A stretch of DNA of 46,522 nucleotides, from NCBI GenBank assembly GCA_019057375.1, contig DXJF01000022.1, forward strand, positions 1 to 46,522. Direction: 5' to 3'. The translations under genes and the position numbers were made by a program. The notes under the pieces were generated by a model that saw only the letters and a list, made by a program, of their open reading frames with translations, was not told where the DNA came from and did not search any database. This DNA is from Candidatus Heimdallarchaeota archaeon (GTDB lineage Archaea; Asgardarchaeota; Heimdallarchaeia; Heimdallarchaeales; Heimdallarchaeaceae). Shown in pieces: positions 13,238-16,900 of the stretch (its first letter is position 1; each line of letters opens with the position of its first letter).

Positions 13238-13252
13238 GAGAAAGTTTATTTT
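13238..13252 (+). promoter_or_regulatory. BRE/TATA-like promoter candidate for the upstream structured RNA
   Basis: Purine-rich GAGAAAG followed by TTTATTTT, about 25 nt before the predicted 5' stem at 13273. Confidence 0.4.
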
Positions 13253-13272
13253 TGTAAAAAAGAAATTAATTT

Positions 13273-13345
13273 TGCGTGAATTGTGATGAGGGTTTTACCG
13301 TTGGAGTTCTTAACCGTGAAATAAAAGGCACCTCTGAATTCCGCA
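13273..13345 (+). ncRNA. C/D-box-like (K-turn) structured RNA, copy 1
   Basis: Box C GTGATGA 13283-13289 and box D CTGA 13334-13337. Terminal stem TGCG(T)GAAT/ATTCCGCA with a 3-nt bulge before the GA gives K-turn geometry. Internal hairpin spans 13293-13321. Confidence 0.65.
13327..13339 (+). repeat. GGCACCTCTGAAT direct repeat, copy 1 (copy 2 at 15434-15446)
   Basis: Exact 13-bp match. TGATGAG, TTGGAG and TGAAA are also shared in the same order upstream of each copy. Confidence 0.9.
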
Positions 13346-13393
13346 TTAATTTCTTAAATAAGAGATATTTGTCTGAATAACAAATTTGCCGAG

Positions 13394-13401
13394 TTTATAA
13401 A
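13394..13401 (+). promoter_or_regulatory. TATA box for the TnpB-like gene (leaderless transcript likely)
   Basis: TTTATAAA lies 26 nt before GTG 13427. Confidence 0.45.
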
Positions 13402-13426
13402 TCAAACTTCTGATTATATAGTAGAT

Positions 13427-15388
13427 GTGACTTTGACCTCTCAAAACTCCATAAAAGATGAAAATATTGTAATCAGAACCTATCGAATGGGTGTTAGGTT
13501 TCATGGTTCAAAAGAAACTCGTCGATTATTAGAGATAGAAGCTAATTCAAGAATTGCAAGATTACAAACTGAACAAGAGGACTTTATATTTGATGACAAT
13601 GCTCATGAGATTGCTTTATCAATAGTTAACCAGAAATTAGATATACCACCTAAATTTGCTCCACGAGAAATCCAAAAATCAACAAAAAAATATTCTAACA
13701 TTGCTGATAGTGCATATTATTGGCTCTACTTGGCATCAAAAAGTACTGCAATAAGGGAAGAGAAGGTTAAGAAAATGCTTTCTTTATTCAAGATTTGGGG
13801 GTATCAGGCTGTAGAGTGGATACTTTTTGGTAGATCTCCTAGAGTTGAAAAAAGATTATATCTAGATTGGCAAGTTCGTCGTATATTTGTTATTAACTTA
13901 CTCCACAGCACTCGTAGAAAATTTGATAAGATTTGCCCAAAGGAGCTGAAACTTTCCTCAAAAATCCCAACAATATCCGAAAAAGAACTAGAACAAAACA
14001 TTAAACGATGTTCTACATCAATAACTAAAGAAATTGTCTCCTCCCAACAACAAATAACAGATAAGTCTTATGCTTTTATGGACAAATTGCATCTACTTGA
14101 GCAGAATTCGAAAATAACAGCTTCACTTCTTCATAAGTGGATAACTGAAGTAACAAGTTCACGTTGGAAGAGTTTAAAGAATTGTGCTAATTCTCTTTCT
14201 GAAGTACTTGGAAAACCAAAGGGCAGTCTGTTTTCAGCAATGCGAACAATTGTAGCCTTTGCACTTTATCCTAAAATAGGACAAACTGTATCAAAAGTAA
14301 TTAGTCAAGTACTCCTAGAAGAAATAGTTCCAAAACCATTTGAAAGAAAAAGAAAAGGAAAATTACCTATCATCCTACTCATGAAAAAAAACTATGTTGT
14401 TGTACGACCTGGAAATTCAGCAGAAATGACAAATTTAGCAAAAATACATGGTCGATTTCAGATAGGATTCACTCAGCAAGGCAAAAAAAGAATAAATGGA
14501 ACTTTGATTTTCCCAAAACGAGTTCAAACAATGTTGAAACAAGGAGCTAAAATCAAAGTACTTCAAATTAGAAGTGGATGTGCTCCAAATTACAAACTTA
14601 ATGTTTCAGTCACTTTAGAAGGTAGTCCATGGGTTTTCTTCGGATTAACAAACGTAAAATCGTTAGGTGAAAAAATAAAGTGTCCTTCTAATTTAGTAAT
14701 TGGTTTAGATATCAATCGCCTTGGAAAATACACTGTAGCGTTATCTAATGAAGTACCATTACCAAAGATAATTCTAAAGTTAATAAACAGATATCATCTA
14801 TTAACTAGAAAGATAATACCAGATTTGAATAGAAGTCTTAAATTTAGTGGAAAAAGAAAGGATAATTTAAGTTATACAAAACTCAAAGGTGAATTATCTC
14901 GAGTTTATAGGAGACGAAGTAATATATTAAGAGAAATAAAACATCAAATAACCTGTTTTATTGCTTCAACTATTGTTAGAAGTAATTGCAAAGCTTTGTG
15001 TGTAGAGGATTTGGAATTTAATCCGATTGGTTTGAAAGGAGCATTAGCTAAGATTTTCTTTTCATTTCCAGATGAAATTAACATATACGAGAAAGCAATA
15101 TCGTTGGCTTCATACTTTCTGGGTTACAAAGTTCAATTAATACCAGTTAATCCAAGCAATACTAGCAAGTATCACTATAACTGTGGAGGTAGAATAGAAA
15201 GAACTAATAGATTCTACGATAATGCCAAATGTGAGAAATGTAATGAAATGGTTAATACGCATATAAATGCTGCACGAAATATAAAGGATAAAGGAATAAA
15301 AAAGCTATCAGAATTACAGTCCCTTTCTGCATACGAGGGCAAAGACTTCAGTCTTCAAGCAAGTCAACTTACATATAGTAATGATTGA
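13427..15388 (+). CDS. tnpB: Large TnpB/Cas12-like RuvC protein
   Basis: RuvC-I VIGLDIN, RuvC-II LCVEDL, 'VNPSNTSKYHYNCG', zinc ribbon CEKC and RuvC-III-like NTHINAARNI. At 653 aa it has an expanded N-terminal helical region. Confidence 0.85.
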   Translation: MTLTSQNSIKDENIVIRTYRMGVRFHGSKETRRLLEIEANSRIARLQTEQEDFIFDDNAHEIALSIVNQKLDIPPKFAPREIQKSTKKYSNIADSAYYWLYLASKSTAIREEKVKKMLSLFKIWGYQAVEWILFGRSPRVEKRLYLDWQVRRIFVINLLHSTRRKFDKICPKELKLSSKIPTISEKELEQNIKRCSTSITKEIVSSQQQITDKSYAFMDKLHLLEQNSKITASLLHKWITEVTSSRWKSLKNCANSLSEVLGKPKGSLFSAMRTIVAFALYPKIGQTVSKVISQVLLEEIVPKPFERKRKGKLPIILLMKKNYVVVRPGNSAEMTNLAKIHGRFQIGFTQQGKKRINGTLIFPKRVQTMLKQGAKIKVLQIRSGCAPNYKLNVSVTLEGSPWVFFGLTNVKSLGEKIKCPSNLVIGLDINRLGKYTVALSNEVPLPKIILKLINRYHLLTRKIIPDLNRSLKFSGKRKDNLSYTKLKGELSRVYRRRSNILREIKHQITCFIASTIVRSNCKALCVEDLEFNPIGLKGALAKIFFSFPDEINIYEKAISLASYFLGYKVQLIPVNPSNTSKYHYNCGGRIERTNRFYDNAKCEKCNEMVNTHINAARNIKDKGIKKLSELQSLSAYEGKDFSLQASQLTYSND

Positions 15389-15452
15389 TGAGTTTCATAG
15401 TATGCATTGGAGCGTAAAAGCTATGAAAATAACGGCACCTCTGAATCTGCGC
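15319..15452 (+). ncRNA. omegaRNA-like 3' RNA containing C/D-box-like copy 2
   Basis: Hairpins lie in the CDS tail (CCCT/AGGG 15321-15339; AAGAC-TTCA-GTCTT 15342-15355). Box C TTGATGA 15385-15391 overlaps the stop codon, followed by an 8-bp stem TTTCATAG/CTATGAAA and box D CTGA 15441-15444. Confidence 0.6.
15434..15446 (+). repeat. GGCACCTCTGAAT direct repeat, copy 2
   Basis: Exact match to 13327-13339. Confidence 0.9.
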
Positions 15453-15457
15453 TTTAT

Positions 15458-16852
15458 TTATATTTCCAGCATTACTTTTTTATTTTGTTTATTCCAAAAG
15501 ATTCTGTTACGATAACTTGGCTTTGCTTTTATTGGCATTTTTTCTATTTTATTAGTCCACTCTTTGACTTTCTTTATGCTTTTAGTAAAAGCATCATTAG
15601 ACACATTGGTCATTAACTTTAATTCATCTGCAGCTGGTTTTCCTGAAACTGCCTTAATTATATCGTCAGTTTTCTTGATAAATTCTTTCTCCAGCTTGTT
15701 TCTACCATCTTCAAAAACATTTAGTCTATGTTGATAATCTTGACTAACTAGTCTTTGGAATTTCTCATTAAACCACCAGAAACTATCTGGATCGTAAAAA
15801 GCATCTGATATTTTTAGCTTCTTCTTTAAACTAGGTTTTGGAAGGAAAATGGGTTTAAAAGTACTGATACATGGAGCTGATGATCCTGTTACCCAATGAA
15901 TTTGAATATCTTTTAGAATGTGAGATACGAGGGATCCTGTTGTTTGATCTGGAATAATTATTCCTGTTGCATGATGGCATGGACTATTAGCTTTTGCTTT
16001 AGCTGGAGCCCATTTTTCCTCTTTCTCTGGTGTGACATTGTGATTTCTAAGAACGTCCATAACATCCTTGGGCGTGATTTTTCCTTTATTTTTTAACATT
16101 AGTGTAGTGGTACACTGTTGTCTCTTAAATCCCTTAGTGAAATAATGTGACCTTTGTGAAGATTCTTTTACTGCATGATAAATTCTGAATTTTGGAACAA
16201 AATCCTTTGCAAAATTAAATTCATCTTTTGATTTACTATATCCTTTTTCGATTGCATGTTTTATGAGATTGTGATGAATTAGATCATATTTGGCTCCAAT
16301 TGAAAAAGTGTTAGAAATTGTTCTAATATCTCTAACCTTCTCTGCAATCCAGTATTTATCAGCTGTTTCTAGAACCCACGCTTCTTTTTGGTCTGCAATT
16401 ATGAAAGAATTATGATAATCTCTACCTACAACACCGTAAGAACACTGTCCGCCTTGTCCATAATCCCCCAGAAGGGAAATTATGATTTCAAGAGCTGTCT
16501 TCGCAGTTTTAGCTCTTTCTAGCGTAAGTCTTATTAGATCCATACCTAGTAATCCAACATCTCTTATTGGTTCTTTACTCCAAACAGCTTCATTTCCTAT
16601 AGCTAAACCATGTTCATTTGCTCCCATCTCACATCCAAACATCCAGAAAGGTTTCATAAGGAGAACATCATATGTTTGTTCGACTTGAGGAATTGAAATA
16701 TGTGTACATTTCACTTTAGAATTTTTTGCATGCTTTTTTCCTGGAATGTATTCTATATTATGGGCTTCATTTGCAACTCGATTAGAGTTCTTACCTAGTA
16801 TAACACTCCCATCCTTTGTTGAATTTCCAACAGCCACAACAGTATCACACAT
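15458..16852 (-). CDS. Peptidase C69 / secernin-family Ntn-hydrolase (dipeptidase)
   Basis: N-terminal MCDT with Cys nucleophile, 'GKNSNR', 'MGANEHGLAIGNE' and 'GLLGMDLIRLTLERA'. Confidence 0.9.
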   Translation of the reverse strand: MCDTVVAVGNSTKDGSVILGKNSNRVANEAHNIEYIPGKKHAKNSKVKCTHISIPQVEQTYDVLLMKPFWMFGCEMGANEHGLAIGNEAVWSKEPIRDVGLLGMDLIRLTLERAKTAKTALEIIISLLGDYGQGGQCSYGVVGRDYHNSFIIADQKEAWVLETADKYWIAEKVRDIRTISNTFSIGAKYDLIHHNLIKHAIEKGYSKSKDEFNFAKDFVPKFRIYHAVKESSQRSHYFTKGFKRQQCTTTLMLKNKGKITPKDVMDVLRNHNVTPEKEEKWAPAKAKANSPCHHATGIIIPDQTTGSLVSHILKDIQIHWVTGSSAPCISTFKPIFLPKPSLKKKLKISDAFYDPDSFWWFNEKFQRLVSQDYQHRLNVFEDGRNKLEKEFIKKTDDIIKAVSGKPAADELKLMTNVSNDAFTKSIKKVKEWTNKIEKMPIKAKPSYRNRIFWNKQNKKVMLEI

Positions 16853-16900
16853 TGTAAGTATCATTAAAACTAGTTAATAAAAAAACTTTACACCGATTCT

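Follow-up and report, generated by a model that had tools for sequence, protein, structure and literature searches.

Genes and features of the locus

The stretch of DNA analysed here (the window) is the 46,522-nt contig DXJF01000022.1 (C117) from the 3.47-Mb, 89% complete genome of a Candidatus Heimdallarchaeota archaeon (GCA_019057375.1). It encodes an enlarged TnpB-like protein, and the 3' end of this gene runs into a block of letters (15319-15452) that combines features of a TnpB guide RNA, or omegaRNA, with those of a box C/D small RNA (sRNA). A second set of the same C/D-box motifs, referred to below as copy 1, lies upstream of the gene, and a convergent peptidase gene follows the block (Table 1). 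A strict pattern built on the two copies occurred twice in the 3.47-Mb genome and never in a reversed control. Both copies have common ordered motifs and a covarying internal stem. Within the window, Rfam returned no match at the gathering threshold and a tRNA scan returned no tRNA gene.

The product of the tnpB-like gene matched Pfam family PF07282 (Cas12f1-like_TNB, E 1.9e-7, above the cut-off), and phmmer aligned its residues 489-627, comprising RuvC-II, the zinc finger and RuvC-III, to Cas12f/TnpB structure chains. Among 22 aligned family members, the catalytic residues D428 (RuvC-I) and E527 (RuvC-II) are invariant, and nearly all members keep a RuvC-III of the form NTHxNAAxNI and an HxxC first zinc-finger pair (14695-15290 in the window, residues ~428-620). 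The genome encodes 10 full-length paralogs with 39-47% identity. A scan of the genome collection yielded 79 further family loci, nearly all titled Heimdallarchaeota, and the homologs found with a name or title attached are likewise nearly all Heimdallarchaeota, with a few Thorarchaeota. Joint Genome Institute (JGI) metagenome scans gave no match to the protein and none to the exact junction of right end and guide described below. An environmental contig (L014) carries the same element, and because the identities between its tnpB and that of the window are 97.1, 96.5 and 90.8% at the three codon positions, the protein is under purifying selection.

Table 1. Features of the TnpB-like element and the sRNA gene in the window
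Feature	Position	Strand	Basis or remark
TATA-like box, predicted native promoter of the sRNA gene	13245..13253	+	Same A/T box and distance in 11/11 TnpB-free orthologous loci
Copy 1, complete C/D-box sRNA	13274..13345	+	Covariance model R1, covarying helices
Copy 1, box C	13283-13289		
Copy 1, D' guide	13290-13301		
Copy 1, D' box	13302-13305		
Copy 1, C' box	13316-13322		
Copy 1, D guide	13323-13333		
Copy 1, box D	13334-13337		
Copy 1, terminal stem	13274-13281 with 13338-13345		
Predicted TATA box of the tnpB-like gene	13394..13401	+	Conserved ...GAGTTTAAATA-type box upstream of paralogs and homologs
TnpB-like open reading frame (ORF), 653 aa	13427..15388	+	GTG at 13427; true start may be TTG 13433 (homolog comparison)
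OmegaRNA scaffold, 3' part (transposon right end)	15319..15407	+	Alignment of 31 tails, pair counts
Scaffold, hairpin 1	15321-15339		
Scaffold, hairpin 2	15342-15355		
Scaffold, third stem region	~15364-15390		
Scaffold, pseudoknot 3' strand	15400-15406		
Scaffold, terminal T	15407		
Box-C look-alike TTGATGA over the stop codon	15384..15390	+	Part of the right end
Predicted omegaRNA guide, first 20 nt of the flank	15408..15427	+	Directly after pseudoknot and T, the starting position of TnpB guides
Displaced 3' half of the resident C/D-box sRNA gene	15408..15452	+	Identical to the 3' half in TnpB-free sisters; holds D' box, variable hairpin, C' box and D guide
Displaced half, box D	15441-15444		
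Displaced half, terminal-stem 3' strand	15445-15452		
Convergent Peptidase_C69 gene	15458..16864	-	Pfam PF03577, E 7e-15; native neighbour of the sRNA gene

The omegaRNA scaffold and its 3' end

A sequence-only reading of this region had proposed an omegaRNA-type scaffold overlapping the 3' end of the tnpB-like coding sequence (CDS), two hairpins in the last 70 nt of the CDS, and a TGA stop (15386-15388) lying within TTGATGA. Stop codon and hairpins were located as described (Table 1), and the scaffold gains support from the conserved structure of homologous tails. In an alignment of 31 such tails (A6), in which pairs were counted against slid controls, hairpin 1 was paired in 100% of cells, with double changes in one of four pairs, so the conservation of a CDS-tail hairpin among homologs, which that reading had named as a check, was observed. 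The loop of hairpin 1 (15328-15334) forms a pseudoknot with the strand at 15400-15406 (90.8% of cells paired, double changes in six of seven pairs), while the slid controls for the structure as a whole reached 29-53%. Folding of 15319-15452 as a single sequence was no better than that of shuffled sequences (z -0.5), and folding energy is therefore uninformative here. An omegaRNA laid over the 3' end of tnpB, with the flanking DNA as its guide, is textbook TnpB, and a pseudoknot adjoining the guide is a known feature of omegaRNA design.

The scaffold had originally been drawn to CTCTGAAT (15446), but conservation in the homolog alignment is lost after T15407. The tails of the family (69 distinct sequences) are alike at the nucleotide level up to ...TTCATA..TGC.T and diverge abruptly after it, and the similarity runs straight across the stop codon, whose position varies among family members. 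On the basis of this drop in conservation, the covarying pseudoknot and the empty sites in sister genomes described below, we place the 3' end of the scaffold at T15407, ~40 nt 5' of the earlier boundary. Both guides proposed from that boundary (15447-15466 and 13340-13359) are consequently wrong, and these segments are instead trailers, one belonging to the sRNA gene and the other to its replacement copy.

Empty sites define the insertion point

Relatives were searched for the 585-aa gene that lies upstream of the element, and the DNA adjoining it was read. In 11 genomes of the same genus this gene is followed by a single sRNA gene and no TnpB. Where the contig continues, the sRNA gene is followed, at the same 5-nt spacing, by sequence that aligns with the 3' end of the Peptidase_C69 ORF of the window. 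The distance of 6 nt first reported between the end of the module and the convergent peptidase stop was accurate (the block ends at 15452 and the stop occupies 15458-15460, 5-6 nt apart), but the idea that an RNA of the element fills the gap to the next gene gives way to a simpler one: the gap is the native spacing between sRNA and peptidase genes, and is the same in TnpB-free genomes.

Positions 15408-15452 are base-for-base identical to the 3' half of the sRNA gene in TnpB-free sisters, and the allele of genome G024 (L100) agrees with it over its entire length. This places the insertion point at ...ACCGT/TGGAG..., with an ambiguity of one T, and the guide accordingly would start at 15408 and not at 15447. 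Since the displaced half abuts the right end, its first 16-20 nt fall at the guide position of the omegaRNA, and we infer that these nucleotides are used as the guide. The predicted 20-mer (15408-15427) is identical to the intact G024 sRNA allele and has no other match in its own genome. In an unrelated cold-seep metagenome, a contig joins 13306 directly to 15417 at a depth of 17.7, with TnpB contigs at 3-5x in the same run, and two other metagenome runs contain the occupied form of the site.

The interrupted gene is a conserved C/D-box sRNA

A covariance model (R1) was built from the sRNA alignment and used for genome searches. It found a copy in all 24 other genomes of the genus and in all 30 other genomes of the family, one in each except G009, which gave two matches at two contig ends; 16 genomes from other families of the order yielded no match. 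A second, weak match was obtained only in the genome of the window, where copy 1 scored 79 bits (E 5.9e-19) and the block at 15384-15452, hereafter the chimera, scored 37 bits. A fitness need for the target gene is suggested solely by its conservation in 30 of 30 family genomes.

In the 11 TnpB-free loci of the genus, the sRNA gene is 71-81 nt long. Its parts follow in the order of an 8-bp terminal stem, box C (AGUGAUGU), a 12-nt spacer, D' (UGGA), a hairpin, C' (AUGAAAA), an 11-nt spacer and box D (CUGA), in which the D' and C' boxes, as read from the alignment, are degenerate. The hairpin between D' and C' varies in length and sequence while its pairing is kept. The terminal stem is 92% paired and shows compensatory changes, and the G-C pair that follows the tandem G.A never varies. 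Overall, 85.6% of alignment cells are paired versus 29-49% in slid controls, and each of the three helices covaries. Both guide spacers (C to D' and C' to D) are invariant among naive, uninterrupted alleles; rows of the copy-1 type have a single-base difference in the D guide.

A 10-nt stretch of the D' guide is perfectly complementary to the 530 loop of the organism's own 16S rRNA (11 nt with one G.U), a result equalled by 70 of 5000 shuffles. Pairing of the D guide beside the D' target in 16S was considered and dropped, as it comes to only 6 bp. Against the CD-box snoRNA families, copy 1 gave a full-length match to SNORD58 with 27.5 bits (E 0.0046), below the gathering score of 42. The resident gene is read as a predicted box C/D methylation-guide sRNA.

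A box-C look-alike produces a chimeric C/D block

The sequence-only reading had arrived at a different picture, in which 15384-15446 is the 3' scaffold of an omegaRNA capped by a kink-turn (K-turn) of C/D type, the scaffold exists in two copies and the 20 nt after CTCTGAAT serve as guides. The ordered motifs and covarying internal stem common to both copies fit this picture, as does the 37-bit score that the downstream copy still attains with R1. However, family conservation and the pseudoknot stop at 15407, what follows is identical to a gene that 30 of 30 family genomes have without TnpB, and the box D block is found in none of the other 69 tails. The putative guide of the downstream copy consists of the peptidase stop and the strand that closes the sRNA terminal stem on its 3' side, and similarity to L014 continues through it. 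Copy 1 also stands alone in TnpB-free genomes, and these empty sites already contradict a C/D-capped scaffold, which we consider highly improbable. What had been taken as a module from box C to box D divides instead into the transposon right end (15384-15407) and the displaced sRNA half (15408-15452), and copy 1, formerly the second scaffold, is better described as a functional sRNA gene with a replacement 3' half.

The proposed box C over the stop codon stands as far as the motif TTGATGA is concerned, but the motif belongs to the transposon end. A paralog at an unrelated site that has no sRNA context (L004) shares the conserved TTCATAG block and has GGATGAG at the same place before it, and the ortholog in L014 has TTGACGA at the look-alike position. 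TTGATGA over the stop is thus an inherited feature of the right end and does not stem from the sRNA. In combination with the displaced box D, the motif imitates a C/D RNA. The chimera scores 37 bits with R1 versus 79-98 for real copies, its closing stem has only 3 bp, and it has no Rfam match; its C/D architecture is not one of common descent. A K-turn made up of the box-C look-alike and the displaced box D may nevertheless bring L7Ae to the omegaRNA 3' end.

Copy 1 travels with the element

In copy 1 the native promoter box is retained, as are boxes C and D and the 16S guide. From TGGAG (13302) onwards it is unlike every naive allele: the hairpin and the 3' strand of the terminal stem are different, and the D guide has one change. 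Compensatory changes in the 5' stem strand match the new 3' strand. Against the predicted guide (15408-15427), copy 1 has mismatches at 10 of 20 positions, starting from guide position 6. Copy 1 keeps the sRNA gene functional: in it, the native promoter precedes a replacement 3' half linked to the element.

The element in L014 is 94.8% identical to that of the window at the nucleotide level, and their third-codon identity is higher in the element (90.8%) than in the flank (85.7%). The flanking gene of L014 is 98.6% identical to that of the TnpB-free genome G009 and 92.3% to that of the window. Upstream, L014 is G009-like as far as nucleotide 4 of the sRNA and has copy 1 of the window type from nucleotide 5; after the right end, it has the G009-type allele at the guide position. 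The unit of copy 1, tnpB and right end has thus entered two non-sister lineages, in which its presence is polymorphic. In both the window and L014, the guide position holds the local naive allele. Vertical inheritance with repeated precise loss was rejected as the main history, since naive alleles keep the ancestral 5' strand that outgroups also have and the L014 flank is 98.6% identical to a TnpB-free genome. In a comparison of L014:4088-4209 with G009 contig C178 (L134), similarity to the window stops at the end of the sRNA and the match to G009 resumes ~1.4 kb further on, so the peptidase gene of L014 seems to have been lost by a deletion that begins precisely where the target site ends.

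These observations also bear on the possibility of target-site duplication, in which an integrase acting in trans, for example a Cas1-like transposase of Asgard archaea, made widely staggered cuts and duplicated ~45-60 bp of the sRNA 3' half. The left duplicate would then have diverged, in part to evade the guide, and the element would carry no replacement fragment. Asgard TnpB groups with a Cas1 homolog and flanking repeats have been described (PMC10691335), the genome of the window has one Cas1 gene, and the direct repeats extend past the end of the RNA gene at the sRNA locus and at the tRNA-Asn loci described below. The right copy, however, is naive, whereas the functional left copy differs widely from it, including in the terminal stem and its 5' partner, by more than the 5-8% divergence of the genomes. 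The same diverged left copy is found in the G009-like background of L014 and therefore travels with the element. On a cursory look, moreover, the Cas1 gene is on another contig and none of the family loci examined has a Cas1 gene within 1.5 kb. Duplication by such an integrase is, in our judgement, unlikely.

Interpretation of the junction and a possible mechanism

Taken together, we are confident that 15319-15452 is the junction between a non-autonomous TnpB element of ~2.1 kb (~13302-15407) and a C/D-box sRNA gene in which it resides, with the displaced half of the gene at the guide position and copy 1 as the functional gene. Homing or cleavage by the element would be a further step, which we infer from characterised TnpBs, and the following sequence of events is drawn by analogy with them (PMC8612924, PMC10278001, 10.1101/2023.11.20.567912). 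The 3' end of the tnpB mRNA would be processed to an omegaRNA, as shown for other TnpBs (PMC10278001), with the first 16-20 nt of the displaced half as guide. TnpB and omegaRNA would recognise an uninterrupted sRNA allele, with ...ACCGT on the side of the target-adjacent motif (TAM) followed by the match to the guide, and either cut or bind it. Repair from the occupied copy would convert the naive allele, resulting in homing or retention of the element. Copy 1 would escape because of its mismatches to the guide, and the displaced half because the right end replaces the TAM side.

Consistent with homing, the guide equals the naive allele of G024, and the linked copy 1 is mismatched at 10 of 20 positions and accompanies the element in L014. 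A bolder proposal, which we put forward only tentatively, is that the element naturally cuts a wild-type gene and brings a resistant copy, with a guide RNA for rRNA methylation as the gene under attack: uninterrupted alleles would be destroyed or converted, a recoded sRNA immune to the guide would be supplied, and the unit would spread between species by recombination. If so, an arms race would have left its mark in the fast-evolving sRNA hairpin, which lies at guide positions 6-16.

Several observations weigh against this account. The canonical D-E-D triad is not found in the protein, as the RuvC-III Asp position is occupied by His (His612) in at least 90% of the 22 aligned family members, and a role in binding instead of cleavage is possible for such a variant. 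Conserved D-to-H changes in RuvC-III are present in other TnpB branches that are presumed active (PMC10691335). A search of the 89% complete genome for a Y1 TnpA (PF01797) was negative, with control genomes positive; serine recombinases were not searched for. TnpB-only elements that are non-autonomous are common. The 5' half of copy 1 is also unlike naive alleles, and simple cut-and-insert at ACCGT/TGGAG is therefore not the whole explanation, while the left end could not be placed from upstream regions of paralogs, which have too little similarity beyond the promoter box. The bases directly before the target at the single naive site read are ...TTTTACCGT, and a TAM on the ...ACCGT side is a guess from this one site. 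Among RNA sequencing runs, none was listed as containing the locus, and the ends of the transcript and the length of the guide are predictions from the DNA. On the side of the sRNA, the D guide has no match of at least 8 nt in rRNA or in 28 tRNAs. Finally, a TnpB-free allele of genome G013 (L098, G013:C146:25753-25824) combines a middle of the copy-1 type with ancestral ends; it may be the scar of an element lost by recombination between the two copies, or an independent allele that is naturally resistant to the guide.

The substitution of His for the RuvC-III Asp also raises the question of whether the protein is a domesticated, immobile TnpB, similar to TldR, that acts as an RNA-guided regulator of the sRNA locus or of another target and not as a homing nuclease. 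In addition to the His, this would account for the failure to find TnpA in the genome, the age of the paralogs (39-47% identity) and the fact that some family insertions are at the same tRNA site in several genomes. By contrast, the guide is unmatched elsewhere in the genome and differs from copy 1 at 10 of 20 positions, which leaves a regulator without a resident target. The insertion is also present in some close relatives and absent from others, it occurs in two non-sister lineages, and the RuvC-I Asp and RuvC-II Glu are invariant. A TldR-like regulator has, in our estimation, a low probability.

Relation to known systems

In common with IS200/IS605 TnpB and its omegaRNA, as characterised for ISDra2 (PMC8612924, PMC10278001, 10.1101/2023.11.20.567912), the window has a scaffold over the 3' end of tnpB, a pseudoknot adjoining the guide, a guide position formed by the DNA just outside the right end and matching the uninterrupted target, and a protein with RuvC and zinc-finger motifs. 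The protein differs in being ~250 aa longer and in having His for Asp in RuvC-III, and a search of the genome for Y1 TnpA was negative. The target also differs, as it lies inside a small-RNA gene, with a working copy that mismatches the guide linked to the element.

The TnpB groups Cas1H-Asgard-1 and -2 (PMC10691335) are similarly restricted to Asgard archaea and, downstream of tnpB, show a single conserved T followed by hypervariable sequence, but no Cas1 neighbour is seen at the element described here and their downstream motif, GTTCACTCA, is absent. The likeness to these groups and to the RuvC-III-rearranged branches of Altae-Tran et al. 2023 (PMC10691335) is one of features and not of position in a tree.

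Elements of the SSV/pNOB8 type that use tRNA genes, and the tRNA-Thr(GGU) locus of Caldiarchaeum (PMC3293823), resemble the window in their insertion into a small-RNA gene, the flanking direct repeats made of gene parts, and the presence of an intact gene on one side and a fragment on the other. Unlike the integrase elements of tRNA genes, the window has neither an integrase nor an att-type identity segment, its fragment is exactly at the guide position of an omegaRNA, and its target is a C/D-box sRNA. At the Caldiarchaeum locus, the insertion and rebuilt gene were described without reference to a guide RNA (PMC3293823). IStrons, which combine a group I intron with an IS605/IS607 TnpB (PMC4227781, 10.1101/2023.11.20.567912), are a further case of a TnpB element that makes its own insertion harmless, although they do so by RNA splicing, whereas the rescue in the window is a replacement DNA copy of part of the gene.

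The resident gene itself shares its C, D', C' and D boxes, its terminal stem and its guide spacers (12 and 11 nt) with the archaeal box C/D sRNAs that act as methylation guides with L7Ae, Nop5 and fibrillarin. It also has the 10-nt complement in the 16S 530 loop, which 70 of 5000 shuffles equal. It departs from them in its variable hairpin between D' and C', in a second guide for which no target was found, and in matching no Rfam family above threshold.

A literature search found nothing that links TnpB to C/D sRNA genes or to natural cleave-and-rescue, and is incomplete because the term 'C/D' is not searchable. A C/D-box sRNA as the target of a TnpB, with empty sites in 30 sister genomes, appears to be new and extends the strategy of inserting into a small-RNA gene while keeping the gene working from tRNA genes to C/D-box sRNAs. 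Sequence alone reveals the element with the end of its scaffold and its predicted guide, a working copy resistant to that guide and, in 30 related genomes, the naive target. This makes the TAM, the use of the guide, and cleavage versus binding directly testable for an Asgard-specific clade of enlarged His-variant TnpBs, and corrects the tempting but wrong reading of the locus as a new guide RNA with a C/D cap.

Other loci of the family

Repeats in the flanks are present in a minority of the 79 loci (the window, L006, L009, L022, L031, L033 and the tRNA-Asn group), mainly beside tRNA or sRNA genes. Because most of the loci have none, duplication of a gene part is not general to the insertion chemistry of the family.

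Four Heimdallarchaeota metagenome-assembled genomes (L016, L017, L019 and L024) have an intact tRNA-Asn(GTT) just upstream of tnpB and, directly after the right end, a decayed duplicate of the tRNA-Asn 3' part together with ~10 nt of trailer. These loci look alike in layout to the window, with a tRNA in place of the sRNA.

Within the same genome as the window, the right end of L009 (C65:37277-42040) abuts a tRNA-Val(GAC) truncated in the T-arm, and a complete copy lies upstream of tnpB. The complete tRNA-Val has an insert of ~31 nt after the anticodon, probably an intron, that interrupts the stretch matching the guide position. A further paralog of the TnpB family (L006, C145) lies in or beside a tRNA-Val gene.

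Eight loci from several genomes (L020, L025, L026-L029, L074 and L094) have near-identical sequence after the right end (...CGCATAGCCGCTTTGCTAA...), followed 40-90 nt away by a tRNA-Cys on the reverse strand. This common flank suggests either a conserved guide or a shared insertion site.

The paralog L004 lies ~6 kb from a 23S rRNA match (C12:79333-82910) that is 3578 nt long compared to the 2987 positions of the model, and which may hold an insertion or intron.

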